The position numbers were made by a program, and so were the translations under genes. DNA of 64,000 nucleotides from a phage, in sequence record PZ386974.1; one strand, given 5' to 3'. The first letter of the stretch is position 1. The number at the start of each line of letters is the position of its first letter. Below, one piece after another: positions 16,278-50,429 of the stretch. The notes beneath the pieces were generated by a model, which saw only the letters and a list, made by a program, of their open reading frames with translations, was not told the DNA's origin and made no database searches.

Positions 16278-16645
16278 TTTACCGCCTTAACAATTTTAAG
16301 GTCAACGAATTTTTTCTTACGTTGATTTTTCATACGACGGATAGTCTTTTCAGAGATTTCATGTTTCTGATAAGCTTTAGATTCAACACCAAATGCAGCA
16401 ACGTCAAATTCAGAAAGAATATATTGTACTAGAATTTCACGAATAGAATTACGTCCAATTTTCTGGTCGTGTTTTTGCATGATTTCGTAAAGACGGAATT
16501 CCCATGCGTCAAGAACTTGAGGAGTAACAATATTGCCAGATTCCAGAAGAGCAACAACTTTATCGAAAGCGAAAGAATTAACTACGTTTTTGATTTTAGT
16601 AGACATATTATTTTCCTCGGTTATTTTATTATCCAACGAGAGCAT
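16274..16645 (-). CDS. hypothetical protein (123 aa)
   Basis: ORF; promoter element immediately upstream. Confidence 0.5.
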   Translation of the reverse strand: MLSLDNKITEENNMSTKIKNVVNSFAFDKVVALLESGNIVTPQVLDAWEFRLYEIMQKHDQKIGRNSIREILVQYILSEFDVAAFGVESKAYQKHEISEKTIRRMKNQRKKKFVDLKIVKAVK

Positions 16646-16673
16646 TATACTCTGCTCCCAAGAGTCTGTACAC
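16636..16673 (-). promoter_or_regulatory. early-type promoter (-35 GTGTAC, 18-bp spacer, -10 TATAAT) with inverted repeat around -10
   Basis: Minus strand GTGTAC-N18-TATAAT; near-identical copy at 46042..46077. Confidence 0.5.
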
Positions 16674-16912
16674 TATTTTTTAAGCATGAAAAGTAAGTAA
16701 TTTGTATCACGTGGAGTAATATCAACACCCATATCAAAGATGCCTTTATAGATCGGGTATTTGTTTTCGGTTGTATCGAAGCTGAAACTATTTCCATCAC
16801 AACTAACAGTAATAGCATCTGTTAAAATGTCATACTCAATCCTAACAATTGAATCCCCAATTTTAACGTCGAGGTGTTTTTTGAATTTGATAAAATCTAA
16901 TTCTTGGGCCAT
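16673..16912 (-). CDS. hypothetical protein (79 aa)
   Basis: ORF. Confidence 0.5.
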   Translation of the reverse strand: MAQELDFIKFKKHLDVKIGDSIVRIEYDILTDAITVSCDGNSFSFDTTENKYPIYKGIFDMGVDITPRDTNYLLFMLKK

Positions 16913-16943
16913 GATATTTTCCTCATTTTAAGACGATAGGAAG

Positions 16944-16973
16944 ATAATAACATGTCTTCCTATCGTTGTACAT
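16944..16973 (-). promoter_or_regulatory. early-type promoter (ATGTAC-N18-TATTAT) with 8-bp inverted repeat ATAGGAAG/CTTCCTAT flanking -10
   Basis: Read directly on the minus strand upstream of ORF 16673..16912. Confidence 0.45.
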
Positions 16974-16975
16974 TA

Positions 16976-17176
16976 TTAACCGAACTTTTTAGCGCCTTTC
17001 CAGCCTTCGTACATAACTGCACAAGTCAGTAGTACAGCGTGCTGGCATTCTTTGTATTTGTAAATCCAGAACCAGCGTAAGAAGTCTTCATCCTCAACGC
17101 CGTTGAGTTTCATATTGGCAAAGAATTCGGCACGTTCTTCACGAAGCTTTTGCGATAACATAGATTCAGGATTCAT
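16976..17176 (-). CDS. hypothetical protein (66 aa)
   Basis: ORF. Confidence 0.45.
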   Translation of the reverse strand: MNPESMLSQKLREERAEFFANMKLNGVEDEDFLRWFWIYKYKECQHAVLLTCAVMYEGWKGAKKFG

Positions 17177-17400
17177 TTTGTGTTCCAGGCCCCATTTTCA
17201 TCGATGAACTTAATCCAGTCATTTACAGACCATTTAGTTGTATCACCCTTTGGATTAACATTTAAAGTATATAATCCCTGCTTAAAAAGCATTCGTTTGA
17301 TATTCATAATTTCCTCAACTGTAACGATAACATTCGTTAGCTTTACGTTTGGCTTCAGTATGAGAAGTATTATAATCATAATCTTCTTTACTGTAAACAT
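17173..17400 (-). CDS. hypothetical protein (75 aa; true start may be internal)
   Basis: ORF overlaps the 3' end of the upstream ORF by 86 nt in the ORF-track model. Confidence 0.35.
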   Translation of the reverse strand: MFTVKKIMIIILLILKPNVKLTNVIVTVEEIMNIKRMLFKQGLYTLNVNPKGDTTKWSVNDWIKFIDENGAWNTK

Positions 17401-17635
17401 CTTTTTTCAACTTACGAACTTCTTTGCGGAGTTGTCGATTCATTTCATTCTTGACTTCAGAATCAACGCCTTTCATACGTTTCCATTTATCTGAGCGGAA
17501 AATGTTTTCAACCATGTCTTTGTGGCTAACACCGTCAGGAGCTTTACGCTTACCAAAATAGTCGTAATCGCGAACTTTCAAATCTTTACGACGATATGTT
17601 TTACCCATAAGTACCTCAGAGGTTGATCGATACAA
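17315..17635 (-). CDS. hypothetical basic protein (106 aa; start may be internal at ~17608)
   Basis: Lys/Arg-rich ORF. Confidence 0.45.
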   Translation of the reverse strand: MYRSTSEVLMGKTYRRKDLKVRDYDYFGKRKAPDGVSHKDMVENIFRSDKWKRMKGVDSEVKNEMNRQLRKEVRKLKKDVYSKEDYDYNTSHTEAKRKANECYRYS

Positions 17636-17864
17636 CGCGTTTGATAAAATTCACTTCACTTACTGAAAGGTCTTTAAGACCGATTGATTCTAAACGCTGA
17701 GTAAGCGTCAACATCGGGATATAATCCCATTGAGTTTTATTTGCTTGATAAGTACGAACGCCATTAGCAATTTCAACATGCAAATCGGAAATGGTAATGA
17801 ATACCGGATGCTCGTCATTAACTTTAAGGGTTAGAACAACCTTCTTTGAATCTAAACTAATCAT
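17616..17864 (-). CDS. hypothetical protein (82 aa)
   Basis: ORF. Confidence 0.5.
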   Translation of the reverse strand: MISLDSKKVVLTLKVNDEHPVFITISDLHVEIANGVRTYQANKTQWDYIPMLTLTQRLESIGLKDLSVSEVNFIKRVVSINL

Positions 17865-18205
17865 GGCTTAATTTCCTTCGCAATTGAACAGAAGATACTA
17901 CGGTCACAAAGCATTTCACCAATTTCTGGATATTTGATTGAACGGTACCAAACATCCAGGCTTGAAACTCTGGTTATCTGTACTGCATTACCGTTGACAG
18001 AATAGTACTGGTCAACCTTAATTTCTTTATCTTCAATTGTCATTTTGTTTTCCTCTGTGGTAGATGGTGCTAATCTTAACATATCTATCGAGGATGTAAA
18101 CTGTTTTATGAAAATATTTTTGATTTGAGAGGGGCACAAGGAGATAATGAAGTGAAGATTCCAATGGATTATATTAGAAATGAGATAAAGAAGACCAGGC
18201 GGCAC
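17861..18205 (-). CDS. hypothetical protein (114 aa)
   Basis: ORF. Confidence 0.5.
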   Translation of the reverse strand: MPPGLLYLISNIIHWNLHFIISLCPSQIKNIFIKQFTSSIDMLRLAPSTTEENKMTIEDKEIKVDQYYSVNGNAVQITRVSSLDVWYRSIKYPEIGEMLCDRSIFCSIAKEIKP

Positions 18206-21430: not shown

Positions 21431-21900
21431 TTTAAACTCTTTCTAAGCTGCTTTTTGAATGAAGCTATTAATTGTGTTTTAGTGTCAGATTCATTATATT
21501 TAAATCCTCTTTGAAGCATCTCAGTCATCATTTCCTCTTTACCTAGTCTTGAGAACTCTTTAGTTTTGTCTGGAACAAAATTAGGATGGATATTATTATC
21601 AGAATAATCTTGTTTCAAATAAGCAAGAAGAGCTTCAAGCCATTCGAGGTAATCAACGTTTTGACCTTTAAGACCAGAACGGTTGAACTTATGCTTCATT
21701 TGACCTTCTGCTGCGTTGCACAGGTTACATAGTAAACCACGAACCTTACCTGCTTTTGGCCCGTTTAATTCATGGTCGTGGTCAAGATGGTTACCTTGAA
21801 CATCAGGGTCTAATTCACGGTGGCAAATAGGACACTTACCGTTCTGTGCATCATAAAATTTTTGTTTTTCTTCTTTATATTTTGCGCCTGATAATAACAT
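21427..21900 (-). CDS. 49: endonuclease VII (Holliday junction resolvase) gp49
   Basis: 157 aa; KEEKQKFYDAQNGKCPICHRELDPDVQGNHLDHDHELNGPKAGKVRGLLCNLCNAAEG is near-identical to my recollection of T4 endo VII. Confidence 0.9.
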   Translation of the reverse strand: MLLSGAKYKEEKQKFYDAQNGKCPICHRELDPDVQGNHLDHDHELNGPKAGKVRGLLCNLCNAAEGQMKHKFNRSGLKGQNVDYLEWLEALLAYLKQDYSDNNIHPNFVPDKTKEFSRLGKEEMMTEMLQRGFKYNESDTKTQLIASFKKQLRKSLK

Positions 21901-21935
21901 GATAAACCCTTACCTTAAATAGATAAGGGTATTTA

Positions 21936-22349
21936 TTAACTTAAACGTCTTTCTAAATATTCAATGTATTCTGCGGCTGCTTGCATCAGGTTACCTTCAT
22001 AGCCGTCGTTATTTTCTTGTCCGGCTAATTTAGCTAATGCATAAGAAATTCGTTCACCTTCGAATTCACCAAGTCCGCCATCACAAACTTCTTGGTCAAT
22101 TTCTTCGAGTTCATCTATTGAATGGGATTCCCAGAAGCACCAAAGAGAAGTATCACGGTCATAGATGCAAAGTTTCTCACCTGTGTTCAACATCACTTCG
22201 ATAATGCCATGGTCGCCATAACCATCTTCGGTAGTAGTACCAATTACCTTGATGATTGTTCCTTTCTTTAATTCAGGAAACTTGACTTGTAGTTCTTCAT
22301 CTTCTTTAACAATCTTGAACCATTTACCGCGAGTTTCAGAAATATTCAT
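21936..22349 (-). CDS. hypothetical acidic protein (137 aa)
   Basis: Start placed at ATG 22349 (MNISETRG...), 1 nt after the stop of the upstream ORF; the track extension to 22487 is hydrophobic and overlaps that ORF. Confidence 0.45.
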   Translation of the reverse strand: MNISETRGKWFKIVKEDEELQVKFPELKKGTIIKVIGTTTEDGYGDHGIIEVMLNTGEKLCIYDRDTSLWCFWESHSIDELEEIDQEVCDGGLGEFEGERISYALAKLAGQENNDGYEGNLMQAAAEYIEYLERRLS

Positions 22350-22548: not shown

Positions 22549-22822
22549 TTAATTCATTTATTGAAGGTTCATCATAACACGTTTCTTCGTCGTTGTAAAA
22601 TGTTTCGACGTCTGGCTCGACCGTCTCCCATCGAGCCGAATACCACGGTTTAACCGCGGAGCTTATTGAGCTCTTCATAATCAATCCAGGATTCTAGTCC
22701 GGATGGTAAAGCCGATTCAATTTCCCAAAGAAGCTCTTCAATTTTTTGAAGACGATCTAATTCTTCAACAGGAATAGTAACCATTGATGGAGCTCTTGCT
22801 GCACTAATATCGTAAATCATAT

Positions 22823-23704: not shown

Positions 23705-24009
23705 TATAATGTTCTCTCAAATTTGTGGAAGCATTTACGGCATTTCAATTTCAAGTTATCACTGGTCCAGTTAACCAGTTGGACTTGGATAGTTCCACAT
23801 TCTGGGCATGGGTGTTTTGCTGCCGATTTGGCAGCATTTTCACGTCGTTCAACCATTTTCATTATTTCGTTCCATGCTGGAGGAACGAACTCTTCTTCAC
23901 CATGAATTTTATCTCGCTGAACAAATTCAATCTTTGAACTATCATCAATAAACTTAACTAAGCCATGATTAGTGCTCATATCAATATCCTCTAGAAGACG
24001 TAGGTTCAT
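23704..24009 (-). CDS. zinc-ribbon protein (101 aa)
   Basis: CPECG...CRKC Cys pairs. Confidence 0.5.
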   Translation of the reverse strand: MNLRLLEDIDMSTNHGLVKFIDDSSKIEFVQRDKIHGEEEFVPPAWNEIMKMVERRENAAKSAAKHPCPECGTIQVQLVNWTSDNLKLKCRKCFHKFERTL

Positions 24010-24956
24010 TATAACACCTCAATGGCATTTCGTAAACCATCCGCTTTCGCGTTCAGAGCTTTTAACGATTTAGTCTGTTCTTTAATCTGGGCTTCGACTT
24101 CTTTAAGACGAGATTTGAGATATTCACGTTCTTCGCTCAAGTTGTCAACTTTTTCTACTTTAGGTTCTTTAATAGTCTTAAGTTTATACTCGTTAGGGTT
24201 CTTCAACTTAATTTGAATGCGAGAACTGAATAACATCGAACCGTTATCTTCGGTTTCGTCATACATTTCTACTACGTCCATGATTCTTAACATCATGCGA
24301 AGTTTATAAGACAGCGAACGAACGGTTTTATTGTGCTTCTTAATTTCTTCAGCTTTCATGGTGCCGAGATTACGTGAGTAGTAATAAGGAACCTGGATAT
24401 CAATTGACAATGATGCGTTACCATTACCTGTTGGTTTGAATACTGCAGTAACCCAATCTTTAACATGAACTTTATTTGTACGATCATCGCCACCAGTGAA
24501 TAATTTACGAGAATGTTTAAAAAGCATATTCACTTGGTTATTGAATTCACAAGCAAATTTATCAGCAAATTTAGTTTCAGGAATGGTAGATAACCAATCA
24601 GCCAAATGAGTCTTTTTAACATCATTAACAATAGTGAATTCAACCAAATCGGTTTTAGATGTCACAGATTTAATAAAGCTCGGCTTCATAAAGTTTTTAA
24701 TGTTATCGCGAGCTACAGTAGAAGATAATAAACGAGAACGTTTGAACCATTGAAGCAGCGTCCCTAATGAATGAGAATATGCATTTTGAGTATCTTTACA
24801 GATATGATTTTCTTGGCCTGTGTATGTAAGAAAATCACGAAGAATACTATAAACCACACCTTTATGTGGAACATCAGTCCAAGCACCAGTAGCACGTTGA
24901 GCGTGAGCGTTAGCGATAAGACCGGCAAAGTATTCAATGTAATGTGAACGTGTCAT
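24009..24956 (-). CDS. hypothetical protein with C-terminal coiled coil (315 aa)
   Basis: First of three tandem ~320-aa ORFs, each with its own promoter element. Confidence 0.6.
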   Translation of the reverse strand: MTRSHYIEYFAGLIANAHAQRATGAWTDVPHKGVVYSILRDFLTYTGQENHICKDTQNAYSHSLGTLLQWFKRSRLLSSTVARDNIKNFMKPSFIKSVTSKTDLVEFTIVNDVKKTHLADWLSTIPETKFADKFACEFNNQVNMLFKHSRKLFTGGDDRTNKVHVKDWVTAVFKPTGNGNASLSIDIQVPYYYSRNLGTMKAEEIKKHNKTVRSLSYKLRMMLRIMDVVEMYDETEDNGSMLFSSRIQIKLKNPNEYKLKTIKEPKVEKVDNLSEEREYLKSRLKEVEAQIKEQTKSLKALNAKADGLRNAIEVL

Positions 24957-24984
24957 AATATTTTCCTCTCGTTAAGATAAATTC

Positions 24985-25014
24985 ATTATACTCCAACCAT
25001 CCTTGGTTGTAAAC
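24985..25014 (-). promoter_or_regulatory. early-type promoter GTTTAC-N18-TATAAT with spacer hairpin CAACCA-AGGA-TGGTTG
   Basis: Consensus hexamers and 18-bp spacing on the minus strand; copies at 26005..26034 and 46546..46575. Confidence 0.55.
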
Positions 25015-25018
25015 TGAT

Positions 25019-25978
25019 TTATGATTTTAACGCATTCATTGCGTTAAAAAGTTTAGAATACTGCAACTGGAGATTCGTTACAACACTTTGAGCATCACGA
25101 AGCTTAGCTTGTGCTTTGTCAAGTTCAACAGACAGTTGGTCCATAGTGGCCTTGATTTGATTGTAATGGTAATCTTCGACCGGAAGAAGGTCATTAGAAA
25201 CATTTAGTTTTACTGCAGACAGTTTGCACACATTTGGCAAACCTTTAAACATTGATTTACCCGAAGTAGAATAAGCACTTAGGACTTCGGCCTGTTCAAT
25301 TGGGGTCCCAGTAAGCGATGCTTCAAACGTTGCATTTTCCTTTTTAAGATTTTGATAATATTCGGAGTCTTTGTGCCACCATGGCGCAGGAACCTTTTTA
25401 CCAATAGATACACGAGCCTGGATAGCGATATGGCCCTTATTCTTGATAGGGTTGATAATATTAAGCTCACGAGAATAAATTGCTTTAATCTGGTGGATAT
25501 TATCACCTAACACTTCCAATGCTTGGTGGAATACACGAGCAACGTTATCATTCTTAGGTTTATACGTAAGAGTGAACTCATTCTCACTGATAACCATGAT
25601 TTCCAACTTATCGTAAGTATATTTCAAATGTTTCATGTTAATTGCTTGAGGACGAATACGAGAAGCAATGGCCATCAGATTGTTAAGGTTATTCCGGAAC
25701 TGCTTAGCGAAATATTGACCTTCACCGCCAATACAAAAATTACGAAGTTTCTGTTTGGCCAATAAACGGCTGAACTCACCATTTTTAATGAACTCTTTAA
25801 CGGGTGTGTTAGTAACGCATTCAAATTGGGTAAACATACGAGAAGTAATCCCATAATATGAACAGATTTCCTCAATCTCTTCAGGAGTCTTTACAGGCAT
25901 ACGGATAGGATTAGGTCCTGGAGTATATGCGTTCGAGGTAAATTCTTTGATAAGTTCTCTACGTGTAATAAAAGCCAT
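25019..25978 (-). CDS. hypothetical protein with C-terminal coiled coil (319 aa)
   Basis: Second tandem ~320-aa ORF. Confidence 0.6.
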   Translation of the reverse strand: MAFITRRELIKEFTSNAYTPGPNPIRMPVKTPEEIEEICSYYGITSRMFTQFECVTNTPVKEFIKNGEFSRLLAKQKLRNFCIGGEGQYFAKQFRNNLNNLMAIASRIRPQAINMKHLKYTYDKLEIMVISENEFTLTYKPKNDNVARVFHQALEVLGDNIHQIKAIYSRELNIINPIKNKGHIAIQARVSIGKKVPAPWWHKDSEYYQNLKKENATFEASLTGTPIEQAEVLSAYSTSGKSMFKGLPNVCKLSAVKLNVSNDLLPVEDYHYNQIKATMDQLSVELDKAQAKLRDAQSVVTNLQLQYSKLFNAMNALKS

Positions 25979-26004
25979 TTTATATTCCTCATGTTGAAAA
26001 ATTT

Positions 26005-26034
26005 ATTATACTCCAACCATCCTTGGTTGTACAT
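26005..26034 (-). promoter_or_regulatory. early-type promoter (ATGTAC-N18-TATAAT) with the same spacer hairpin
   Basis: Near-identical 30-bp copy of the 24985..25014 element. Confidence 0.5.
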
Positions 26035-27029
26035 CATTCCTTAAGAAGTTTTACTACTTGAATAAGATTAGCTCGTTCTGTTTTATTTTTACCGTTTAAG
26101 CCTGCTAATCGTGAGATTTCATCGTCAGTCTGTTGAATAGTTACATTAAGTTCGTTAATCAAAGCTTCAAAGTATTTGATTTGCTCAGCATGTTTTGATT
26201 CAAATTTCTGAACCGGAATAACGTCTTGGTTCAGTTCATCAATAAGGTCTTTAAGAGCATCTTCTTGGTTGATATCATATTCAACTTCTTTTATTTCTTC
26301 AACTAGCTCGTCTTTATATCTAACGTCTTTTAGTCCTGGTGCTGGTCCTGAAATCTCTTCTTTAAGAGTACAAACATACCCAATACGGTATCCAGTGCCG
26401 TCTCGCTTGATATCAACTTCGTCGATAAATCCACAATGTTTGAGACCAGAGCCGATTAGGTCAAAATATCCTTGACGACGTCCTTCAAACGTTACACGAA
26501 CTACTAAGACAGTTTTGCCTGCAATCTTTTGAAGCTCACATTTATAAAAGTCAGTTGAACCTGAATAACGTGGATGAGTTTTAAAGTTCATCTGACGATC
26601 TAGGCCCATTTGTAAACGTGCTGTTACGGCCATAAAACGTGTTTGGTTCTCGTTAAGATGAGCAACAATCCATTTCAAAGGCATTTTACACTGTTCACGA
26701 CCGAACAAATCAGTACGTCCTAGATTACGCAGGATGTTGTTAGAGTTAATCATCGACAGAACGTTAAGTTTATTCAGCGCGCTGAAGATTCCATCAGCCA
26801 TTGATTTTCCGTAGCCTTTACACGCTTTAATAAGCGCTCGCGGTAGATTAGTATAGATTTCAGACGGCATATGAAAATCAAATTTACTAACCAGTAATTG
26901 ATGAACTTGGATAGCAATTCGTTCATAATTAAGCGCTCTGCGATCATTATGGTCTTTAAACCACACTTTAATCTGTGAAGCACATAAACCGTTAATTTCA
27001 TGTTTTATCGCATCAGATGTAATGCTCAT
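26034..27029 (-). CDS. hypothetical protein with C-terminal coiled coil (331 aa)
   Basis: Third tandem ~320-aa ORF. Confidence 0.6.
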   Translation of the reverse strand: MSITSDAIKHEINGLCASQIKVWFKDHNDRRALNYERIAIQVHQLLVSKFDFHMPSEIYTNLPRALIKACKGYGKSMADGIFSALNKLNVLSMINSNNILRNLGRTDLFGREQCKMPLKWIVAHLNENQTRFMAVTARLQMGLDRQMNFKTHPRYSGSTDFYKCELQKIAGKTVLVVRVTFEGRRQGYFDLIGSGLKHCGFIDEVDIKRDGTGYRIGYVCTLKEEISGPAPGLKDVRYKDELVEEIKEVEYDINQEDALKDLIDELNQDVIPVQKFESKHAEQIKYFEALINELNVTIQQTDDEISRLAGLNGKNKTERANLIQVVKLLKE

Positions 27030-27091
27030 AACTATTTCCTCAGATTGAATTGGAACTCAAAACCATTATAACCCGTCCTTGGGTAAAGCGT

Positions 27092-27619
27092 TTATGCGTG
27101 AACCGTCTTTAAACGTTCTTCAAATTTCCGAAGAGTACTAATACGTTCTGCTTTCTGTTTTGTATAGTTTGCAATACGTTCCGAAGTGAGAGCGTATCGT
27201 TCGTTTACTGTTTCTTTCATGAAGTCAGGGATTTCACGAGAAGCTTTAATTTCATCAAACTTATCGAGTACTGCCTGGTCTTCAGCGATTAAATTTTCGT
27301 ACATCTCGATATCTTTCTTAATAAACTCGATATCTTCCTGGGTTACTTTGGATAAACGAGATGCTTTATCCTTTTTGTACTGCTCGTTAGTTTCACGAGA
27401 CCAGAATAATGTACGGTTTTTGTTAGTGTTTTTGTAGACTTCCACAATTCCAACTGAATCGATGATAACAATCCAATTCCAGCGAGATTTGAAAATCTGA
27501 CCTCCATCTACGGTAATCTCGTTACCATAAGCAACGTCATTAAAGAACTTGCTTTGTGCTTCAGATTTAAATTTACCGTCGTTATAATTTACCAGGTTGA
27601 AAATATCTTTAGCGTTCAT
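27092..27619 (-). CDS. hypothetical protein (175 aa)
   Basis: ORF with coiled-coil C-terminus. Confidence 0.55.
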   Translation of the reverse strand: MNAKDIFNLVNYNDGKFKSEAQSKFFNDVAYGNEITVDGGQIFKSRWNWIVIIDSVGIVEVYKNTNKNRTLFWSRETNEQYKKDKASRLSKVTQEDIEFIKKDIEMYENLIAEDQAVLDKFDEIKASREIPDFMKETVNERYALTSERIANYTKQKAERISTLRKFEERLKTVHA

Positions 27620-27646
27620 GTTTTACCTCCAGTAGTTGATAGGTCT

Positions 27647-27675
27647 ATAATAACATAACCATAGACCTTGTAAAC
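27647..27675 (-). promoter_or_regulatory. early-type promoter GTTTAC-N17-TATTAT with inverted repeat GGTCTAT/ATAGACC
   Basis: Read on minus strand upstream of ORF 27092..27619. Confidence 0.5.
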
Positions 27676-29104: not shown

Positions 29105-29121
29105 TTCGTTTCGATAGGTCT

Positions 29122-29150
29122 ATAATAACATATCCTAAAAGCATGTACAC
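29122..29150 (-). promoter_or_regulatory. early-type promoter (GTGTAC-N17-TATTAT)
   Basis: Hexamers and spacing on the minus strand upstream of the ATPase gene. Confidence 0.45.
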
Positions 29151-29201
29151 TACTTTTTAAAAATATTTTAACCCCCTAAAGGGACCCGAAGGTCCCCACA
29201 T

Positions 29202-38385: not shown

Positions 38386-38449
38386 TTTTTGTTTCCTTGT
38401 TTGTTTTGATAGAGTAATTATACCATATTAATACTTAAGCGTAAACAAT

Positions 38450-38716: not shown

Positions 38717-39130
38717 TTAGTAAATTGATTTACCATAGTATTTGTACCAAGTCGGACGTTGAGCAATTTTTTCATCTAAGCGTGCTTGACTTATCGCAAT
38801 GGACGCTTCGGACGGGACGTAATTATTACGAAATTCGGCAGGGATGTCGGAAATATCCTGGACAGTCGTGTCCTTGATTTTGAAACCACGTTTCAAGCAT
38901 TCAGCGATTAGCTCGATTTGTCGTAAACGTAAAAATTCGAGTTTGTCGTAAAAGAATGTTACGTGACCTGTGCCTAAGATAAATGTTGGAGAGATTTTAA
39001 AATCCTTTACACGTTTACCGTTTTGAACATGTTTACGGACTGCACCAAATACGCGTGGTAATTCACGATACTCAGCCATAAGATGTTGGTCGGCCAGTTC
39101 AGAAACAAGCGTTAAATTGATACGGGTCAT
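38717..39130 (-). CDS. denV: endonuclease V (pyrimidine-dimer DNA glycosylase) DenV
   Basis: [34 protein letters not shown] matches T4 DenV; start set at MTRINL with GGAGG SD. Confidence 0.9.
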
Positions 39131-39135
39131 AATTT

Positions 39136-39187
39136 CCTCCAAGTAGTTGATGAATGTATAGTATCAAAGTCCTTGGAGGAAGTAAAC
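39136..39187 (-). promoter_or_regulatory. early-type promoter (GTTTAC-N18-TACTAT) within inverted repeat CCTCCAAG/CTTGGAGG that contains the denV Shine-Dalgarno
   Basis: 8-bp perfect arms; -10 lies in the loop; the 3' arm is the SD. Confidence 0.5.
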
Positions 39188-39485: not shown

Positions 39486-39955
39486 GTTCCTGTTTTAAAT
39501 GTTGAGATTACGCGTTTCGCGCGATTAGGTGTCTGACGATACCATTTAGATTGGGCTAGATTTACTGCCGCTTCGTCCCAACGTTTCTGTTGAAGCATAC
39601 GAAGAGAATTAGTAAAACCGGCGACGCCTGCTACACCCATTTGGAAGACCATATTGACCAACGCACATCGACGAACCGCATCTAAAGAATCATACACCGG
39701 TTTAAGTTTAGCATTACCCAAGATTCCGCGAACGGCTTTATCAACGTCTTCATTAAATAGCTTTTCAGCCTCATCAAGGGTAATTGTACCGTTGCATTTA
39801 CGACCGATCATTCTGTCAAGTTCAGCTTTAGCTACGGCTAAAGACGGGTTCTTTGTTACTAAATGGCCTATGCCAATCGTCCAAAAGCCTTCAGTGTCTT
39901 TGTATAAAGTCAGTCTAAGACCTTCGTCATTACGAAGCATTTCAAATATATTCAT
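39467..39955 (-). CDS. e: endolysin (T4 lysozyme, gene e)
   Basis: [32 protein letters not shown]...[15 protein letters not shown] matches T4 lysozyme; start at MNIFEML (39955). Confidence 0.92.
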
Positions 39956-39989
39956 AATACCTCCCACGTTTATAGGAGGTATTTATTAC

Positions 39990-40448
39990 TTATAGGAGTG
40001 TAGTGAGCACCTTATATAATGATTTGCCCATTACATATTCCCATTGAGAAGGTTTAATTAAAGCGAATGCATCAAATTCAGGAATCTGTCGTCCGTCTGG
40101 GAATGTATGATAGGAATTACAAACACTGTTTCTGAATTGCTCGTGCTCTACAGGGATGGTATATAGGAACAGATGAATATTCTTATTGTCTGAGTAATGA
40201 TGTTCACCTAGGTCTTTCAGGAAGGCAGGGTCATATTGTGTAAACCCAGTTTCTTCTTCGCATTCACGAATAGCGGCTTCAATAGGAGATTCACCAGGCT
40301 CGACACGTCCTTTAGGAATATCCCACCGATGAGCTAAAGAACCTTTAGGACGAGAACCAGTTACACGCCCCATGAATAATTCTTTATCTTCGGTAAGGAA
40401 AATAATACCGGCTGATAGTTCTTTCACTTTATTTTTCTTACTCATCAT
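39990..40448 (-). CDS. nudE: Nudix hydrolase (NudE-like)
   Basis: Nudix box GRVEPGESPIEAAIRECEEETGF; position next to e as in T4. Confidence 0.75.
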   Translation of the reverse strand: MMSKKNKVKELSAGIIFLTEDKELFMGRVTGSRPKGSLAHRWDIPKGRVEPGESPIEAAIRECEEETGFTQYDPAFLKDLGEHHYSDNKNIHLFLYTIPVEHEQFRNSVCNSYHTFPDGRQIPEFDAFALIKPSQWEYVMGKSLYKVLTTLL

Positions 40449-41849: not shown

Positions 41850-42155
41850 TTATTTTCCTCGGCATTCTTTAATGAAATTTTCTAGATTGGTAGATTCAAT
41901 AGCTTTTTTACGAGCTTCGGCATGTTCTTCTTCAGACAATCTACATTTGTAATTGACCCAGACATTATGGTCGAAACTAGTTGTGGCATATAATAACAAT
42001 GCTCCAACGAATAGCAAAAACGGCGATAAGAATACAAAACCAGGAACACCATCCATATCGTACGCCTTTTGTAATACTGCAACAGAAAGAGCTGCGTAAA
42101 AAGGTGATGCAAATATTGTTAAAAGACCAATTCGGTTGGTTTCGCCTAATTTCAT
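41850..42155 (-). CDS. membrane protein (101 aa)
   Basis: Two TM helices. Confidence 0.5.
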   Translation of the reverse strand: MKLGETNRIGLLTIFASPFYAALSVAVLQKAYDMDGVPGFVFLSPFLLFVGALLLYATTSFDHNVWVNYKCRLSEEEHAEARKKAIESTNLENFIKECRGK

Positions 42156-42186
42156 AATATTCTCCTCATGTTTTAATAGGACTACT

Positions 42187-42223
42187 ATAACATAATCCTA
42201 TAATTGTGTAAACAGTTTTGCGA
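42187..42223 (-). promoter_or_regulatory. early-type promoter GTTTAC-N18-TATAGT with inverted repeat around -10
   Basis: TAGGACTACTATAACATAATCCTA on plus strand. Confidence 0.45.
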
Positions 42224-43210: not shown

Positions 43211-43462
43211 TTAAATTTCACGACATGCGATATTATATTCATCCCAGAGGTCATCGTGTGAAGCCTCTACCAATGGAACGATTGTACCGTTTATGTCTTC
43301 ATTATAAGGGCAAATTGTACAGTGCGCATCTTCGAATCGGATGCCTTTGTGTTCAGATTTTTTATAACGCATATCGAATATCTTTGCAAACTTTTCACGA
43401 GTAATGGTTTTACCAACCACTTTGGTTCCGATACTTTCGTAATAAATCATTGTGGACTCCAT
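43211..43462 (-). CDS. hypothetical protein (83 aa)
   Basis: ORF. Confidence 0.5.
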   Translation of the reverse strand: MESTMIYYESIGTKVVGKTITREKFAKIFDMRYKKSEHKGIRFEDAHCTICPYNEDINGTIVPLVEASHDDLWDEYNIACREI

Positions 43463-43470
43463 TTGTTTTG

Positions 43471-43508
43471 ATAGGACTACTATAACATAGCCCTATCTTG
43501 TTGTAAAC
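43471..43508 (-). promoter_or_regulatory. early-type promoter GTTTAC-N18-TATAGT with inverted repeat ATAGGAC/GCCCTAT
   Basis: Member of the ATAGGAC-type element family. Confidence 0.45.
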
Positions 43509-44307: not shown

Positions 44308-44405
44308 TTTCTACATTCCTTAATAAAGTTTTCGATTGTTTCATTTTCACGTCTAGCTAGGAGTTCATTATAACTAATCATTTGAGAAGCGTAAACAGTA
44401 TAAAT

Positions 44406-45412: not shown

Positions 45413-46021
45413 TTATTTCAAAGAGTTAATATATTCTTGTACATCAGCAGAAGTGGTTTCGACACCGGCTGGAGTACCATTGAATGTTTCAACACGAGTC
45501 AGAGTGTCTTCGATATCAACCTTAGTCAGTGCAGCGATTTCAATTACATCATCGGCCGTAGAGATACCAAGGGCATTGGCTGCTCGAGTTTCACGAATGT
45601 ATTCGAGTTTGATTGCCAGATTCTGACGAGCATCATCAAGTTCAACCACCTTACGAGCAATTTCAATTCGCATAGCGGCATACCCGTCAGCTTTTGTATT
45701 AAGTTGTTCGGCAGTTCGACGATACAGAAGACCAAGCTTAGCATGCATGGTAACATCTTGTCCTTCAGCCAGGAGCTTACGAATTTCACGTTCCTTAGAA
45801 GCGGCTTGCTTATTCTTTTCGATAACAAGTTCGCGAATACGTTTTTCTTCATTAATAGATTTAACAGAAGCCGTTTTTAGTTCTTTGATTTGGGTAATCA
45901 ACTTATCTGCAGCTGCATTATACTGTTCTTCGACAGTCAGATTTTTAGCCATAGCAGTACCCAGTTTAGTGCGGATGAATTCAACAAGTTTCTTCAGTGT
46001 GTTCATATTATTACCTTTCAA
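45413..46021 (-). CDS. coiled-coil protein (202 aa), possibly PspA/IM30-like
   Basis: Largely alpha-helical, charged heptad-like composition; family assignment tentative. Confidence 0.5.
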
Positions 46022-46041
46022 TTGGTGGTTTATTATCCAAC

Positions 46042-46077
46042 GAGAGCATTATACTCTGCTCTCAAGAGTTTGTAAAT
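46042..46077 (-). promoter_or_regulatory. early-type promoter (ATTTAC-N18-TATAAT) with 7-bp inverted repeat GAGAGCA/TGCTCTC around -10
   Basis: Near-identical to the 16636..16673 element. Confidence 0.5.
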
Positions 46078-46304
46078 TATTTTTTAATCAAATTGACATA
46101 AAACTTGGCGTCTTCGGGGTGCATGCCTTCGCAGTATTCTTCAACCATGAACTTCTTAACAGCTTCATAAGGACCGCTAAGATTAAGCTCAGTTGTCCAG
46201 AACTTGGAATCTTGTACTGAATCGATACGAACTTCAGGGTGACGGTTGCGAATAACTTCTTCAGTGTATTCATAATCAACGACATCAATACTAACTTTAG
46301 CCAT
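46077..46304 (-). CDS. hypothetical protein (75 aa)
   Basis: ORF. Confidence 0.45.
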   Translation of the reverse strand: MAKVSIDVVDYEYTEEVIRNRHPEVRIDSVQDSKFWTTELNLSGPYEAVKKFMVEEYCEGMHPEDAKFYVNLIKK

Positions 46305-46574
46305 TTTGTTTTCCTCTTGATTTGATAGGACTACTATAACATAAACTTACTTAGATGTAAATTATTTCAACGTCACCTTTAGCTGCTTTATAACCTTCAG
46401 CCCAAGATACAACAGAGTTTTTATCTGAGGATTCAAATTCAGGCATTGGACTTTCACCAATATTCACACAGTATGTTTCTTCATTTTCATCGAACCAAAT
46501 AATTAAAGTAGTCATTTTGTTTACTCCTCTGTAGTTGATAAGTCTATAGTATCACCATCCTTGGTGCTTGTACA

Positions 46575-47078
46575 TCATTTATTTTTAATTTTGCAAATTT
46601 TTTCTGCTTCAGCAATTGCAGCGTCAATGATGCTTTGTGCAATTTTATTACTAGTTGACCTGGCAATCACACTAAGAACAATTTCTTTTTCTTCACCACC
46701 CCAACCCCAAGTCCTTTGTTCGTGGGTACCTTTAACTACAGCTGAAACTTCAACAGAACGTCCACCATCAGAAGTTTTAACATCTACAACCCAATCACCA
46801 TCTTTCTCTTCTACCCTTGATTTATCCCAAGAAATACTAATATATGATTCGCTATCAATAGAAGTCGCCGGGTTTTTCTCTACCGTAAGACCTTCACTTT
46901 CCAGCCATTCAATAGTATTTGCGCATAAATCTGAAGAACACCTAATCGGAAACCGGCAAGATTTTTCACCTTTAGCTGCAGCGTTATACATCTTTTCTAA
47001 AATACGCTTTTGCACGTTTTTAAAAATAGTTTCAGCAGATTCTTCAGATTTTTTATTCAGTTCAGTGTAAAGACTCAT
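46575..47078 (-). CDS. hypothetical protein (167 aa)
   Basis: ORF. Confidence 0.5.
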   Translation of the reverse strand: MSLYTELNKKSEESAETIFKNVQKRILEKMYNAAAKGEKSCRFPIRCSSDLCANTIEWLESEGLTVEKNPATSIDSESYISISWDKSRVEEKDGDWVVDVKTSDGGRSVEVSAVVKGTHEQRTWGWGGEEKEIVLSVIARSTSNKIAQSIIDAAIAEAEKICKIKNK

Positions 47079-47168
47079 AATATTCTCCCCATGTTTTGAT
47101 AGGTCTATAGTAACACATCTAGGGAAGAAGTAAACATCTTTATGAAATATTTTTATGCCCTAGATACC

Positions 47169-47195
47169 AAAAAGCCCCAACCGTAAGGAAGGGGC
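47169..47195 (-). terminator. intrinsic terminator downstream of the IP-like gene
   Basis: AAAAAGCCCCAACCGTAAGGAAGGGGC on plus strand, i.e. hairpin then U-run on minus. Confidence 0.55.
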
Positions 47196-47201
47196 ATTCT
47201 A

Positions 47202-47666
47202 TTATTTAATTTGTTTAGCAGACCAGATACGGTCTTTAATAAGTTTTTGGATATCTTCAACATACTCAAGGCTATGAGCGTGAGGATTATCTTTGAAGCT
47301 ATGTGCTCGTGCCAGTTTCTGGCCTTCTGTTTTGATTACTAAAAGCTCTTTAAGAATTGCTTCATACTTAGAAATAATTCCTTTGGCGATATTTTTTTCT
47401 TGAGCGGCTTTAGGGTCCGCTTTTGGTGCAGGTGCTTTACCTGTAGCTTTCTGGAACAATTCACCTGATGCAGCTAGGCTTTTAAAAACTCGGCTAACAG
47501 TATTAGCATTAGTAAAACCTTCGGCTTTAAAATCTCTAATAAAACGGAAACGTTCTTCATCAGAGGCGTCTTTGTAAGAATATTTACCTGCTTGAATTGC
47601 TGCAATCGCAGCGGCTTTTACATCTGAACTAGATTGTTCAGTCAAAAATTCAGCGTATGATTTCAT
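47202..47666 (-). CDS. internal protein (IP) candidate with capsid-targeting sequence (154 aa)
   Basis: N-terminus MKSYAEFLTE. Confidence 0.6.
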   Translation of the reverse strand: MKSYAEFLTEQSSSDVKAAAIAAIQAGKYSYKDASDEERFRFIRDFKAEGFTNANTVSRVFKSLAASGELFQKATGKAPAPKADPKAAQEKNIAKGIISKYEAILKELLVIKTEGQKLARAHSFKDNPHAHSLEYVEDIQKLIKDRIWSAKQIK

Positions 47667-47710
47667 GTTGCTTTTCCTAAGTTAATTAACTTATCTATTT
47701 ATTATTATGC

Positions 47711-47740
47711 AAAAAAAAGCCCCAACCTTTCGGAAGGGGC
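47711..47740 (-). terminator. intrinsic terminator at the end of the tRNA/small-RNA transcription unit
   Basis: A8 followed by GCCCCAACCTTTCGGAAGGGGC on plus strand. Confidence 0.6.
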
Positions 47741-48052
47741 TATGCCTTGCGGCAACCTTGTCGGGGTTCCACCTGCTAAGGCAAGTGTTTGTACGAAACG
47801 CCGGGATTCGAACCCGGTTATTAAGTAGTTGACGCTACTCAATATTTTTAAAAGGCCATATCTCGACCATATCCGAACGTTCCGTCAAAAACGCTACTCG
47901 GCTTACGGCAAAGATATTTCCTCGAATCGATAATTCGGTGCGCCGTTTCTGCTGTGATGTAAGGGGATATTAACAAATCGTAAAGATTTATTAAGACCAG
48001 TCCTTACTCAGGGAGCATCAGTCCGACGACTTACCGGTAGCGACCCGGCTTC
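47741..48052 (-). ncRNA. structured non-coding region with a tRNA-like T-arm (candidate small stable RNA or degenerate tRNA)
   Basis: No ORF; minus-strand CCGGG-TTCGAAT-CCCGG at 47801..47817, 10-bp palindrome GGAACGTTCC, repeated GAGTAGCGT; no complete cloverleaf could be folded by eye. Confidence 0.3.
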
Positions 48053-48397
48053 TTATTTTGACATATCATCAATTTGCTCTCGACGCCGACGCCATAGATT
48101 AATCACTTCATTAACACATTCGGCGTTTGATATATGACGGCAATAATATAATGATTCGCGTTTCTGGAACCGATGTTGCAATGGGATTTCGTTTAAAAGG
48201 TCTTTACGGTCAAAGTATTCAAAACTAGTTAACCCAGAACGGTTTTTAATGAACTTCCAATGACCGAATTCATTTTGAACATAGATGTAATCTGCATGTT
48301 GGTATAACAAATTAATCAATCGGTCTGAAATAACTGTATCATGTTCGTTAAAATAAAACGTTAAATCATGAACTACCAGATAAATATTGCCTTTCAT
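48053..48397 (-). CDS. hypothetical protein (114 aa)
   Basis: Start set at ATG 48397 (GAGGAA SD) to avoid overlap with tRNA-Arg. Confidence 0.5.
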   Translation of the reverse strand: MKGNIYLVVHDLTFYFNEHDTVISDRLINLLYQHADYIYVQNEFGHWKFIKNRSGLTSFEYFDRKDLLNEIPLQHRFQKRESLYYCRHISNAECVNEVINLWRRRREQIDDMSK

Positions 48398-48415
48398 ATT
48401 TTCCTCACTTAAAAT

Positions 48416-48492
48416 TGGTCGAGACAGAAGGATTCTAACCTTCAACCTACGGATTAGAAGTCCGTTGCTCGATACAATTGAGCTATGCCTCG
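48416..48492 (-). tRNA. tRNA-Arg (anticodon UCU), CCA encoded
   Basis: Manually folded cloverleaf: 7-bp acceptor stem (one G-U), D-stem GCTC/GAGC, anticodon stem ACGGA/TCCGT with loop CTTCTAA, T-stem GAAGG/CCTTC, discriminator A + CCA. Confidence 0.8.
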
Positions 48493-48498
48493 AATATA

Positions 48499-48572
48499 TG
48501 ACCCAGACCAGATTCGAACTGGTAACCTTTCCCTTATGAGGGGACTGCTGCTAACCATTGAGCTACAGGGCC
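48499..48572 (-). tRNA. tRNA with CAU anticodon (Met or lysidine-type Ile)
   Basis: T-arm ACCAG-TTCGAAT-CTGGT, anticodon loop CTCATAA with U33/A37, acceptor stem with one mismatch; CCA not encoded. Confidence 0.6.
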
Positions 48573-48651
48573 TAAATAACTTTCTATTATGAAAGGCACT
48601 TTAGAGTACCTTTGGTAATAGAGGGTATGAATTAATAATAACACATAATTC

Positions 48652-49167
48652 TTAAAGCAAATCAATCATTTTAACAGTTGGCAAAACGATTTCTTCTTCA
48701 ATATAAGCAAATTCGACACGTTCAACTACACGCAAGAAATCGTAATCATAGTATTCAGAAGCATAGCCAAGAATATCAATAAGACCTTGAGATATCTCAT
48801 CGCCTTTCACAAAGAACAGGTCGAATACGCGGGCTTCGTCTTCTTCAGATTTATTACCAAGGTCGACTTCAATATCAAAGACCTTTTTAATGAATTCCGG
48901 CTGGAGCTGGTCTGAAAACAGTCCTTCAACCAGATATTCGTAGATAATAAGCGAGCAATCACTGAATGGTGTATTACCACAGTAACGTTCAGCTTTAGTG
49001 CTGGAATGACGACTCTTAAATTTCTTCAAGAGATATTTAAACTGTTGGAGCTCATGTTCTTCCACACCAAATAATGTTTTGGTTTTATAGTTGTCACCGT
49101 CATTTTCCCAAGTAGTGACATCAATTACGTAACCCTTAGGAATTGTACTGCCTAAACAAATATTCAT
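48652..49167 (-). CDS. hypothetical protein (171 aa)
   Basis: ORF. Confidence 0.5.
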   Translation of the reverse strand: MNICLGSTIPKGYVIDVTTWENDGDNYKTKTLFGVEEHELQQFKYLLKKFKSRHSSTKAERYCGNTPFSDCSLIIYEYLVEGLFSDQLQPEFIKKVFDIEVDLGNKSEEDEARVFDLFFVKGDEISQGLIDILGYASEYYDYDFLRVVERVEFAYIEEEIVLPTVKMIDLL

Positions 49168-49171
49168 TTAC

Positions 49172-49462
49172 TCACCGTACCATATTAATGTAATTATATT
49201 CAATGCAACGTAATTTCAAAGGATTCTTGAAAATATCATATTCAAGAGGGCCTTGTTCTGTTTCAATAAAGAAATCAAAGTTAACTGTGTTAAATTTATC
49301 GTCTTCACAGAGTAATTTAACTTGCGAAGATGAACGGTCGATATAAACCTTTTCAACCTCAAAGTTAGTCAGAATACCGTAGTCATCGACTAGTGCTTTA
49401 GCTGCTCGTTGGTCGCTTTCATATCCGTTCTCGACAGATTTTACTTTAGCGTAAAGAATCAT
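49172..49462 (-). CDS. hypothetical protein (96 aa)
   Basis: ORF. Confidence 0.5.
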   Translation of the reverse strand: MILYAKVKSVENGYESDQRAAKALVDDYGILTNFEVEKVYIDRSSSQVKLLCEDDKFNTVNFDFFIETEQGPLEYDIFKNPLKLRCIEYNYINMVR

Positions 49463-49839
49463 GAATGTTCCACCATTTCAAAGGTATGAGCATCAACAAT
49501 ATGATACCAGTCAAAATTTTCTTCTGCGTTTTTATAAATTTCGCGAAGAGCCTCAACAGTTTTTCCTGTAGCAACAAGGTCGTCAATACCACCAAGAGGA
49601 TAACAGTCATAACCAGCAAACAGAAGGAAATTAATAGTTTCTGTAGGTTCTGGATGCAGAACTCCGTTATCGTCTACCACTTCAAAGAAAGTGTAAGAAG
49701 GAGTACAAGTTTTAATCCAGGTCCATGCTTGAGCTGCTGAATCAAATGGTCTGCGTATCAAACGACAATCAGGGTCTTTAGAAGGATTTGCTTCAAAATC
49801 CGCATATACATGATATTTCATTTTACTCACCTTTTGCAA
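49459..49839 (-). CDS. hypothetical protein (126 aa)
   Basis: ORF. Confidence 0.5.
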   Translation of the reverse strand: MQKVSKMKYHVYADFEANPSKDPDCRLIRRPFDSAAQAWTWIKTCTPSYTFFEVVDDNGVLHPEPTETINFLLFAGYDCYPLGGIDDLVATGKTVEALREIYKNAEENFDWYHIVDAHTFEMVEHS

Positions 49840-50029
49840 TTTTATCCATAACGATAGCGATTAAACCGATTAGAAATGCTACTACCAATGAGATAGAATT
49901 TTCTGATGTTGACAGTAGTCCGCAAATGAATCCTACAAACATCGAAAAACTAAAAGCCATTGAAGCAATTACTACAGCAACATTACGAATCAGTTCAGCG
50001 CGTTTCATTTTATTTCTCCATTTACTCAT
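49823..50029 (-). CDS. small membrane protein (68 aa)
   Basis: Single long hydrophobic segment; promoter element directly upstream. Confidence 0.45.
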   Translation of the reverse strand: MSKWRNKMKRAELIRNVAVVIASMAFSFSMFVGFICGLLSTSENSISLVVAFLIGLIAIVMDKIAKGE

Positions 50030-50035
50030 TTGTTT

Positions 50036-50075
50036 TGATAGGACTACTATAACATAGTCCTATCAGCATGTAAAC
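50036..50075 (-). promoter_or_regulatory. early-type promoter GTTTAC-N18-TATAGT with perfect inverted repeat ATAGGACTA/TAGTCCTAT flanking -10
   Basis: Hexamers, spacing and 9-bp arms read directly. Confidence 0.5.
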
Positions 50076-50078
50076 TAC

Positions 50079-50366
50079 TTATAGAAGAGTTTTTGCAATA
50101 ATTTTAAGCTGAGCTACAGAAATATGCTTAGCTTTAAACAGTGCAGTCTCTTCAGCCGGAGAGATAACAATAGTAGCGCCATCTTTCTTAGCAGACCATC
50201 CATCCCCTAAATAAACAGTACCTTTTACTTCTTCGCCGTCAACCAGACTAATCATTGGTTTACCCTCGCGTCCTTTATTTGCTTTAATAACTTCGGAAGT
50301 AAGGGTTGCTTCGGTCAGAGTAGAAACGTTAGCAACAGGTGATATAAATTCTTTATAGGTTTTCAT
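50079..50366 (-). CDS. internal protein (ipI-like by position) with capsid-targeting-like N-terminus
   Basis: N-terminus MKTYKEFISP; located upstream of 57B as ipI is in T4. Confidence 0.6.
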   Translation of the reverse strand: MKTYKEFISPVANVSTLTEATLTSEVIKANKGREGKPMISLVDGEEVKGTVYLGDGWSAKKDGATIVISPAEETALFKAKHISVAQLKIIAKTLL

Positions 50367-50399
50367 TTTATTTCCTTGAGGTTGTTTATTTGATAGGAT

Positions 50400-50429
50400 G
50401 ATAGTAACACACCATCATCCTTATGTAAA
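50400..50429 (-). promoter_or_regulatory. early-type promoter GTTTAC-N18-TACTAT with inverted repeat AGGATGAT/ATCATCCT
   Basis: Upstream of the ipI-like gene. Confidence 0.45.

Follow-up and report, generated by a model that had tools for sequence, protein, structure and literature searches.

Why should the early promoters of a T4-type phage carry inverted repeats in the parts that vary from one promoter to the next? The question is raised by a 64,000-nucleotide stretch of phage DNA (sequence record PZ386974.1; hereafter the window), in which an earlier note, made from the letters alone, had described about twenty early-promoter elements with embedded dyads between 16636 and 50429 on the minus strand. 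The window shares 96–97.5% identity with RB69-like Mosigvirus genomes, among them vB_EcoM_LNA2, G53 and RB69, and its portion from ~14 to 54 kb corresponds to RB69 gene 55, nrdC, tk, vs, regB, denV, e, the tRNAs, ipI and 57B. The gene 55-57B stretch is a classical hyperplastic early region of T4-type phages and is transcribed from the minus strand in the window. We lean, with moderate confidence, toward reading the elements as T-even-type promoter-early stem-loop (PeSL) modules, in which the hairpin would form only in RNA read through from an upstream promoter and which double as patches of homology for recombination.

Results

Promoter cassettes and their geometry

A strict search of the window for GTTTAC-N16-19-TATAAT returned five matches against 0.14 expected, all five on the minus strand, in agreement with the GTTTAC-like –35, 17–18-bp spacer and TATAAT-like –10 that had been proposed. 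A generic sigma-70 scan showed no overall excess of promoter-like sites (70 against 71 expected; 59 against 50); only the T4-type pattern is informative. The catalogue of cassettes was built with a relaxed regular expression and an nhmmer profile seeded from its matches, anchored on the –10 hexamers, and holds 27 minus-strand cassettes. The range 16636–50429, which the earlier note gave as running from the first copy to the last, contains 25 of them, somewhat more than its count of about twenty; two others lie outside it, at 10925–10985 and 15709–15770.

The cassettes are intergenic, ~60–70 bp long, and share one plan: a GTTTAC-like –35, a spacer of 17–18 nt, a TATAAT-like –10, a leader of 20–35 nt, and a GGAG-type Shine-Dalgarno sequence (SD) with its ATG. 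An AT-rich region lies upstream of the promoter, which points toward the downstream open reading frame (ORF), and in 17 of the 27 the stop codon of the upstream gene abuts or overlaps the –35. Intergenic position, as first described, held for most copies but not for three or four weak sites that lie in an ORF or overlap a start codon (17424, 24061, 22604 and 44415; cassettes are named by their labels, and their intervals are given below). The RB69 early promoters predicted with a hidden Markov model by Nolan et al. 2006 include orthologues of nearly all cassettes; that study noted a preference for C at –3 to –1 and did not mention dyads. The T4 regB promoter, orthologue of the cassette at 35491–35550, is an experimentally known early promoter. 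Promoter features are absent from the annotation of the T4 reference NC_000866 and of the T4 strain record KJ477685, and no genome-wide start-site mapping for T4 or RB69 was found in the literature searched.

Within the promoter, only the spacer and the stretch that follows the –10 are free to vary, and in dyad-bearing cassettes these two parts are mutually complementary. Three geometries occur. In class A, the commonest, the spacer holds the 5′ arm, and the 3′ arm begins directly behind the –10 or overlaps it, reaching ~+3. In class B, the spacer right after the –35 pairs with the SD region 30–40 nt downstream in a long anti-SD stem. Class C is a short hairpin wholly inside the spacer, with a conserved AAGGA loop. 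Embedded stems are AT-rich and 7–13 bp long, and their loops measure 6–30 nt. Dyads flanking the –10 or inside the spacer had thus been recognized correctly, but the long spacer-to-SD stem had been missed (18117, 32337, 35576, 39195 and 47153). A stable stem-loop in or next to the promoter is present in ~15–17 of the 27 cassettes; ~8–10 have none or a degenerate one (22604, 24061, 29167, 38468, 44415, 46385 and others).

Dyad arms match their own partners beyond chance

For each cassette, the fold of a 62-nt segment (–22 to +40 around the –10) was compared with dinucleotide-preserving shuffles. Against these composition-matched controls the dyads exceeded chance, with a mean fold z of –2.05 over the 27 cassettes and z < –2 in 15 of them, and cassettes also folded better than random minus-strand segments (Mann-Whitney p = 7e-4). 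When cognate left and right halves were joined, the fold reached –11.6 kcal/mol compared to –7.9 kcal/mol for chimeras, and 0 of 20,000 permutations attained the cognate value; the result held after paralogues had been collapsed to 21 representatives. Because chimeric half-joins lose the fold signal, the arms must differ between copies and yet match their own partners.

The structure follows the promoters. Among 82 minus-strand gene starts in 14.2–52 kb, z was –1.85 for those with a cassette (n = 22) and –0.02 for those without (n = 60; p = 3e-5). The only strongly structured junctions without an early promoter were those of genes e and 49, which served as a positive control in the same scan (~39955–40015 and ~21900–21960, minus strand, z about –3.3). 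They correspond to the T4 late-promoter hairpins known to sequester the SD, and are conserved in this phage. Only two tRNAs were matched in Rfam, and the embedded hairpins correspond to no curated RNA family there.

With promoters defined blind to the arms (–35, –10 and downstream SD-ATG), an excess of structure was also found in RB69 (z –2.0), a Dhakavirus (–1.95), T4 (–2.9), LNA2, mar005p1, phiC120 and AV109. The T4 ipI, ipII, denV and regB promoters are among those with such dyads, and the promoter-dyad architecture is also present in a Jiaodavirus. The whole LNA2 genome gave 51 minus-strand matches, 22 in the ~36-kb gene 55-57B region (z –1.97) and 29 in the remaining ~132 kb (z –1.37). 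It is thus a general feature of T-even early promoters.

At least 12 unrelated arm sequences were found, each pairing with its own partner, and substitutions in orthologues are compensated. One pair in cassette 31800–31860 reads A-T in the window but G.T in RB69, and mar005p1 and phiC120 both have G-C; the same promoter in T4 and in Mosigvirus differs by three compensated pairs; and the GAGAGC/GCTCTC family appears elsewhere as GAGAGA/TCTCTC and GGGACC/GGTCCC. The compensatory variation of the arms that had first been noticed was borne out by these pairs and by the chimera control, and supports selection on structure rather than on sequence.

Probable pairing in the sense transcript

A feature of the DNA duplex is expected to show no asymmetry between G.T and A.C mismatches, because G.T on one strand is A.C on the other. 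A strict tally, limited to mismatches internal to stems and de-duplicated by family, column and type, gave 15 G.T, 3 A.C and 14 other mismatches (G.T over A.C, p = 0.004). A pooled tally over cluster-wide column ranges (G.T 11, A.C 12) was discarded, as it took in unpaired flanking columns. Sense RNA was also ~1.1–1.6 kcal/mol more stable than its reverse complement, compared to 0.5 kcal/mol for random same-strand 40-mers. The G.T bias and the fold asymmetry, together with the diversity of arms, registers and loops, point to pairing in the sense transcript.

Of 111 elements with a dyad, taken from 12 genomes, 110 have the 5′ arm entirely upstream of the predicted +1. With its 5′ arm upstream of the start site, a cassette's own transcript would be unable to form the helix, and therefore only RNA from an upstream promoter could fold the hairpin.

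Predicted occlusion of the Shine-Dalgarno sequence

The promoter pattern, the dyads with their covariation, G.T bias and geometry, the predicted SD occlusion and the breakpoints with their chimeric cassettes are computed results; where transcription starts, how the RNA folds in vivo and what the hairpins do are inferred. By partition-function folding, the predicted probability of an unpaired SD falls from 0.48 in the cassette's own transcript to 0.31 when the RNA is read through (p = 4e-4). For seven cassettes the predicted value in read-through RNA fell to ~0.00 (15757, 18117, 26057, 27083, 32337, 35576 and 39195), and these include the gene 55, regB and denV cassettes; the SD-pairing stems covary. 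Class A hairpins, by comparison, end ~10 nt before the SD and leave it accessible.

The hairpin would thus sort transcripts by where they were initiated, at the cassette's own early promoter or further upstream. In the anti-SD cassettes, among them those of regB, denV and gene 55, the SD would lie buried in the stem in read-through RNA, and the gene would be translated from its own early transcript and not from read-through RNA. Relief could alternatively come from translational coupling, with a ribosome that terminates at the adjacent stop codon melting the anti-SD stem; this is plausible because a ribosome at a stop codon by the –35 would cover the 5′ arm. GGAG that lies in structured RNA is protected from RegB, for which GGAGRAYARAA is a strong site. 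Several cassette SDs match that site, and stems would shield read-through RNA from RegB given this protection. Class A is most likely an intercistronic RNA hairpin, which may stabilize the 3′ end of the upstream message once the downstream SD has been cleaved, or serve as a weak attenuator or pause site.

The stem-loops could instead terminate or attenuate transcription, halting polymerase that comes from cassettes further upstream, an explanation we regard as unlikely. It draws on an experiment in RB49/phi1, where one PeSL stem-loop placed between a promoter and lacZ cut expression about as much as the rrnB T1 terminator did (PMC2839356), and it would suit hairpins that sit right after the upstream stop codon and whose sense-strand RNA pairing is supported. 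However, a simple intrinsic-terminator scan listed none of the embedded dyads, after which AAAAC or the like stands in place of a T-run; their stems are AT-rich and short and their loops may be long; and real terminators look different here, since upstream of the promoter in five cassettes there is a separate hairpin that is GC-rich and has a T-run. Control of translation also explains the anti-SD class better. The terminator role of the RB49 stem-loop is therefore not supported by the sequence of the window cassettes.

A GC-rich hairpin of the separate kind, GCCCCTTCC(GAAA/TTAC)GGTTGGGGC followed by TTTTTGG, is repeated at ~32321–32350 and ~47165–47196 (minus strand), each time directly ahead of an anti-SD cassette. 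An insertion of 594 bp in AV109 falls precisely at 32323–32351, at the first of these terminator-like hairpins, with a 29-bp overlap; another GC-rich hairpin lies at 29170–29186, upstream of the nrdC.10 cassette.

Cassettes as likely joints of modular shuffling

Breakpoints were taken from collinear BLAST comparison of the window with six Mosigvirus genomes over 14.2–52 kb. Cassette intervals, which make up 5.9% of this region, contained 16 of the 50 distinct breakpoint ends (p = 2e-8, uniform null), and cassette-bearing junctions received 16 of 32 junction ends compared to 27% expected (p = 0.004, junction null). Gene-content breakpoints between relatives thus concentrate in the cassettes, in the comparison that the earlier note had suggested.

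Three deletions were resolved at the level of single cassettes. AV109 lacks 16670–16966, a stretch bounded by two cassettes, and also 25011–26005, the gene between twin promoters, with a 27-bp overlap; phiC120 lacks 46341–46508, with a 46-bp overlap. Each left a chimeric cassette with its upstream half from one copy and its downstream half from the other. The three crossovers fall in the longest shared stretch, whether that is the –35, the spacer plus the –10, or the 3′ arm and leader. In RB69, an extra 346-bp segment, comprising an internal-protein gene and its own cassette, is present at 50344–50370 with a 27-bp overlap. Independent of the hairpin, the 30–60 bp shared between cassettes would act as homology patches, and recombination at these patches would delete, insert or replace the genes they flank.

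Since several copies are evident paralogues (the core family, the 16698/46099 pair and the 25033/26057 twins) that recombine with one another, one may ask whether the dyads are simply functionless, either inherited repeats or by-products of recombination or replication slippage between cassettes. We consider this quite improbable. The unrelated arms, at least 12, match only their own partners, substitutions are compensated in orthologues across genera, G.T is tolerated while A.C is not, and dyads have been kept from T4 to Mosigvirus, Dhakavirus and a Jiaodavirus.

A slightly less probable explanation still is that the dyads are DNA hairpins or cruciforms, formed in single-stranded or supercoiled DNA, that draw in endonuclease VII or other recombination enzymes and thereby cause the shuffling. 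The concentration of breakpoints in cassettes is in keeping with this, as is the single RB49 mini-circle crossover within the loop of a stem-loop (PMC2839356). Against it, the three crossovers reported here lie in the longest shared stretch and at no fixed place in the hairpin, so that homology is the likelier substrate than structure; loops of 6–30 nt disfavor extrusion; and a duplex feature predicts none of the observed G.T/A.C asymmetry.

That the dyads are operators for a dimeric DNA-binding repressor of early promoters, perhaps tied to early-promoter shut-off, is very improbable: the arms do lie on either side of the –10, a position from which a repressor would shut out RNA polymerase, and T4 early-promoter shut-off has been described as 'not completely understood', but arm sequence, register and loop length vary widely, the arms covary rather than being conserved, mismatches are biased to G.T, and many stems reach an SD ~40 nt away. 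Hairpin promoters of the N4 type were considered and rejected, as the two promoter boxes suit host sigma-70 and the loops are long.

Individual cassettes

Within class A, the core family is represented by cassette 31871 (31800–31860, z –5.4), in which TTGATAGGACTA-N8-TAGTCCTATCAA flank TATAGT (31831–31836) and the SD is the consensus RegB site GGAGAACAAAA. Further members are 42235 (42153–42213; ATAGGATTA/TAGTCCTAT, one U.G), 43530 (43448–43508; GATAGGGCTA/TAGTCCTATC, with a G.U kept in five genomes) and, at the internal-protein (IP) locus, 50098 (50006–50075; TGATAGGACTA/TAGTCCTATCA, z –5.0). The ATAGGAC/GTCCTAT arms of the earlier note were present in these four, and its other arm pairs were likewise found in place in the cassettes named below. 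Cassette 46385 (46302–46362) keeps the 3′ half of the core family with a degenerate 5′ arm, and forms one end of the phiC120 deletion. The early promoter at 16910–16973 (ATGTAC-18-TATTAT, –10 at 16944–16949, z –5.0) has a hairpin of 10–13 bp, CGATAGGAAG/CTTCCTATCG, whose inner pairs are compensated relative to the core family.

The 3′ arm overlaps the –10 in two class A cassettes: 27698, upstream of nrdC.8 (27617–27675; –10 at 27647–27652; AGGTCTAT/ATAGACCT, noted earlier as GGTCTAT/ATAGACC; z –2.1), and 50446, upstream of an internal-head-protein gene (50364–50429; –10 at 50401–50406; AGGATGAT/ATCATCCT; z –3.4). Cassettes 50098 and 50446 flank an internal-head-protein gene in the T-even IP locus. 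Cassette 46099, upstream of e.6 (46004–46077, z –2.9), has GAGAGCA/TGCTCTC flanking TATAAT at 46048–46053, and its paralogue 16698 (16604–16673; GTGTAC-18-TATAAT, –10 at 16644–16649) has GGGAGCA/TGCTCTC with one G.T. These two have ~55 bp in common though they lie 29 kb apart, and LNA2 has further copies at other places in its genome (positions 85173 and 113376). At the 16.7-kb site, the upstream part of the AV109 copy is like the 46-kb cassette and its downstream part like the 16.7-kb one; this mixed copy suggests gene conversion between distant cassettes.

Class B includes the regB promoter 35576 (35491–35550, z –4.9), in which a 14-bp stem, TTCTCCTCTAGTTG/CAACTAGAGGAGAA, encloses the –10 (35522–35527) and the SD is predicted to be occluded in read-through RNA, and the denV promoter 39195 (39128–39187, z –4.9) with a 10-bp anti-SD stem, TTCCTCCAAG/CTTGGAGGAA. 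In 18117 (18041–18101, –10 TAAGAT at 18073–18078, z –3.9), CCTC in the spacer pairs with GAGG of the SD. A terminator-like hairpin lies just upstream of both 32337 (32254–32312), in which TTTTCCTC in the spacer pairs with GAGGAGAA at the SD, and 47153 (47076–47135; anti-SD stem TTCTTCCC/GGGGAGAA; breakpoint 47086/47141). The cassette upstream of gene 55, 15757 (15709–15770), has ATAGGTCT/AGACCTAT flanking the –10 (15741–15746), and its SD is likewise predicted to be occluded in read-through RNA.

Class C comprises the twins 25033 (24954–25014, upstream of nrdC.3) and 26057 (25976–26034, upstream of nrdC.5), with the identical spacer hairpin CAACCA-AGGA-TGGTTG, and 46597 (46513–46575) with CACCA-AGGA-TGGTG, which forms the other end of the phiC120 deletion. 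The hairpins themselves lie at 24991–25008, 26011–26028 and 46552–46569, and similar ones occur at ~12621 in T4 and ~11604 in a Dhakavirus. Their stems covary around the AAGGA loop (CAACCA/TGGTTG, CACCA/TGGTG, CCACA/TGTGG and ATCC/GGAT), and the loop itself is SD-like.

Two MotA-box, middle-type promoters (GCTTTA-N12/13-TATAAT, minus strand) also have dyads around or before the –10. The cassette at 10925–10985 (z –3.4) has GATGTGGT/ACCACATC around its –10 (10956–10961), and 27083 (27027–27090), with GCTTTA-N13-TATAAT upstream of nrdC.6, has a weak CCC/GGG spacer dyad. The 'PmSL' elements of phage nt-1 are analogues of these dyad-bearing MotA-box promoters.

The remaining cassettes include those with a degenerate dyad or none. 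The early promoter upstream of nrdC.10, 29167 (29081–29150), has a degenerate dyad and a replacement breakpoint at 29131; 38468 (38383–38446) is a consensus early promoter without a dyad. Weak candidates are 17424 (17369–17398), a GTTTAC-18-TATAAT consensus within an ORF; 22604 (22571–22600), a promoter-like site without a dyad; 24061 (24008–24037), a doubtful consensus-like site, also without a dyad, whose –10 overlaps the next start codon; and 44415 (44367–44396), a consensus promoter-like site without a dyad at which RB69, LNA2 and mar005p1 have a 250-bp insertion point. A further promoter-like match at ~36300–36345 (minus strand) lies within coding sequence and is probably not a promoter; its 8-bp dyad, TCTATAAT-N10-ATTATAGA, is kept in all Mosigviruses compared.

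Two neighboring stretches are variable between relatives. The most rearranged among the compared Mosigviruses is 47100–49200, in which the window has tRNA-Arg(tct) and tRNA-Met(cat) genes (48416–48572) and AV109 has tRNA-Asn and tRNA-Met instead. At 50063–50344, AV109 shows a replacement of 280 against 628 bp; this insertion and replacement region at 50 kb is the classical polymorphic IP locus.

Discussion

A motif flanking the T-even IP locus was reportedly recognized by Repoila et al. in 1994 as a T4 early promoter with an overlapping inverted repeat. In the account that PMC2839356 gives of that work, the T-even elements have a T4-type promoter and 'weaker, more AT-rich' stem-loops of variable size, and on this second-hand description the window cassettes resemble them more than they do the RB49 PeSLs: both combine a GTTTAC early promoter with a dyad and flank small variable genes, including IP genes. 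In the window the architecture extends beyond the IP locus to ~25 promoters over 34 kb, and to ~50 genome-wide in LNA2.

PeSL cassettes are known from RB49/phi1, T4/PST and KVP40/nt-1 (Arbiol et al. 2010, PMC2839356; Comeau et al. 2014, PMC4122927), with a terminator or attenuator role that has been proposed, and in part tested in RB49/phi1, and with encapsidated mini-circles arising by recombination between flanking elements; 'half' PeSLs are on record too, to be compared with the degenerate cassettes here. The likeness that the earlier note had drawn to such cassettes extends to their anatomy: in both, a sigma-70-type early promoter follows an AT-rich stretch, a stem-loop sits between the –35 and –10 or overlaps the –10, G-T pairs included, and the element ends in an SD and start codon. 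The window cassettes also share their many copies, enrichment in hyperplastic regions, coincidence with indel and replacement breakpoints, and recombination between copies, of which the three chimeric deletions are examples. The likeness is one of analogy, however. RB49/phi1 PeSLs have a TTGACA –35 and G(n)-loop-C(n) stems, whereas the window has a GTTTAC –35 and AT-rich stems, with no sequence homology, and Arbiol 2010 (PMC2839356) already regarded T-even elements as analogues, not homologues. The window stems also lack a U-tract, unlike what the published terminator role would call for. In the T4/PST figure of PMC4122927 the stem-loops stand just upstream of the promoter, whereas most of those found here, in the window and in T4, bracket the –10 or reach the SD. 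No paper naming PeSLs together with RB69, and no description for RB69-type phages, was found in the literature searched.

The anti-SD class has a second precedent. In T4 e, soc, 49 and I-TevI, a helix in read-through RNA buries the SD or AUG, and the promoter lies within or after the 5′ arm; transcripts from that promoter lack the 5′ arm and hence are translated, and since the promoter is a late one that depends on gp55, expression is delayed (PMC3014915). The window's anti-SD class shares with these genes an SD that is predicted to pair in read-through RNA and, by geometry with a predicted +1, a promoter inside the structure. The promoters differ, being late (TATAAATA, gp55) in e, soc, 49 and I-TevI and early (GTTTAC/TATAAT) in the window. 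By analogy, the logic of an anti-SD stem at an early promoter would be insulation or coupling, not temporal delay. The reviews consulted contain no description of an SD-burying hairpin at early promoters.

Several points weigh against reading the cassettes as modules with a hairpin specific to read-through RNA. The +1 is a prediction from the usual 7-nt distance and the published RB69 logo. The G.T and A.C counts are small, and the energy gap between sense and antisense is partly compositional. With the dyad absent or degenerate in about one-third of cassettes, the hairpin is not essential to promoter function, and what class A does, its SD staying free, is a guess. Many copies are paralogues or orthologues and hence not independent. 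In the two commonest registers, 87% and 83% of cells are paired compared to 34–61% with the partner slid (34–52% for the commonest), and both sides have changed in 10 of 12 pairs of the commonest and 8 of 14 of the second, but these rows were picked for pairing on the tested diagonal and illustrate the pairing rather than prove it; the weight for structure is carried by the unselected tests. Breakpoint enrichment, finally, could partly stem from variable genes carrying their own promoters.

The basic phenomenon has been described already (1994; 2010–2014), and the Mosigvirus case is an extension of it, not a discovery. The additions are modest: the evidence for pairing in sense RNA, the rule that places the 5′ arm ahead of the start, and an anti-SD class of early promoters that runs from T4 to Mosigvirus and Dhakavirus. 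More tentatively, and as a proposal we hold to be possible rather than probable, a 5′ arm in the early-promoter spacer may be a general T-even device that marks the origin of a transcript at dozens of early promoters. In that case regB, denV and gene 55 would be translatable only from their own promoters or through coupling at the stop codon, GGAG in read-through RNA would be shielded from RegB, and the cassettes would serve as recombination joints besides.

The cassettes join early transcription, control of translation and mRNA, and the modular gain and loss of accessory genes, which are usually treated apart. Compensatory dyads that are most likely RNA structures of read-through transcripts only would offer a testable explanation of why they sit, oddly, inside promoters. 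The catalogue is also a list of predicted recombination joints, which may be of use in phage engineering and in understanding gene-content differences among therapeutic Mosigvirus isolates.

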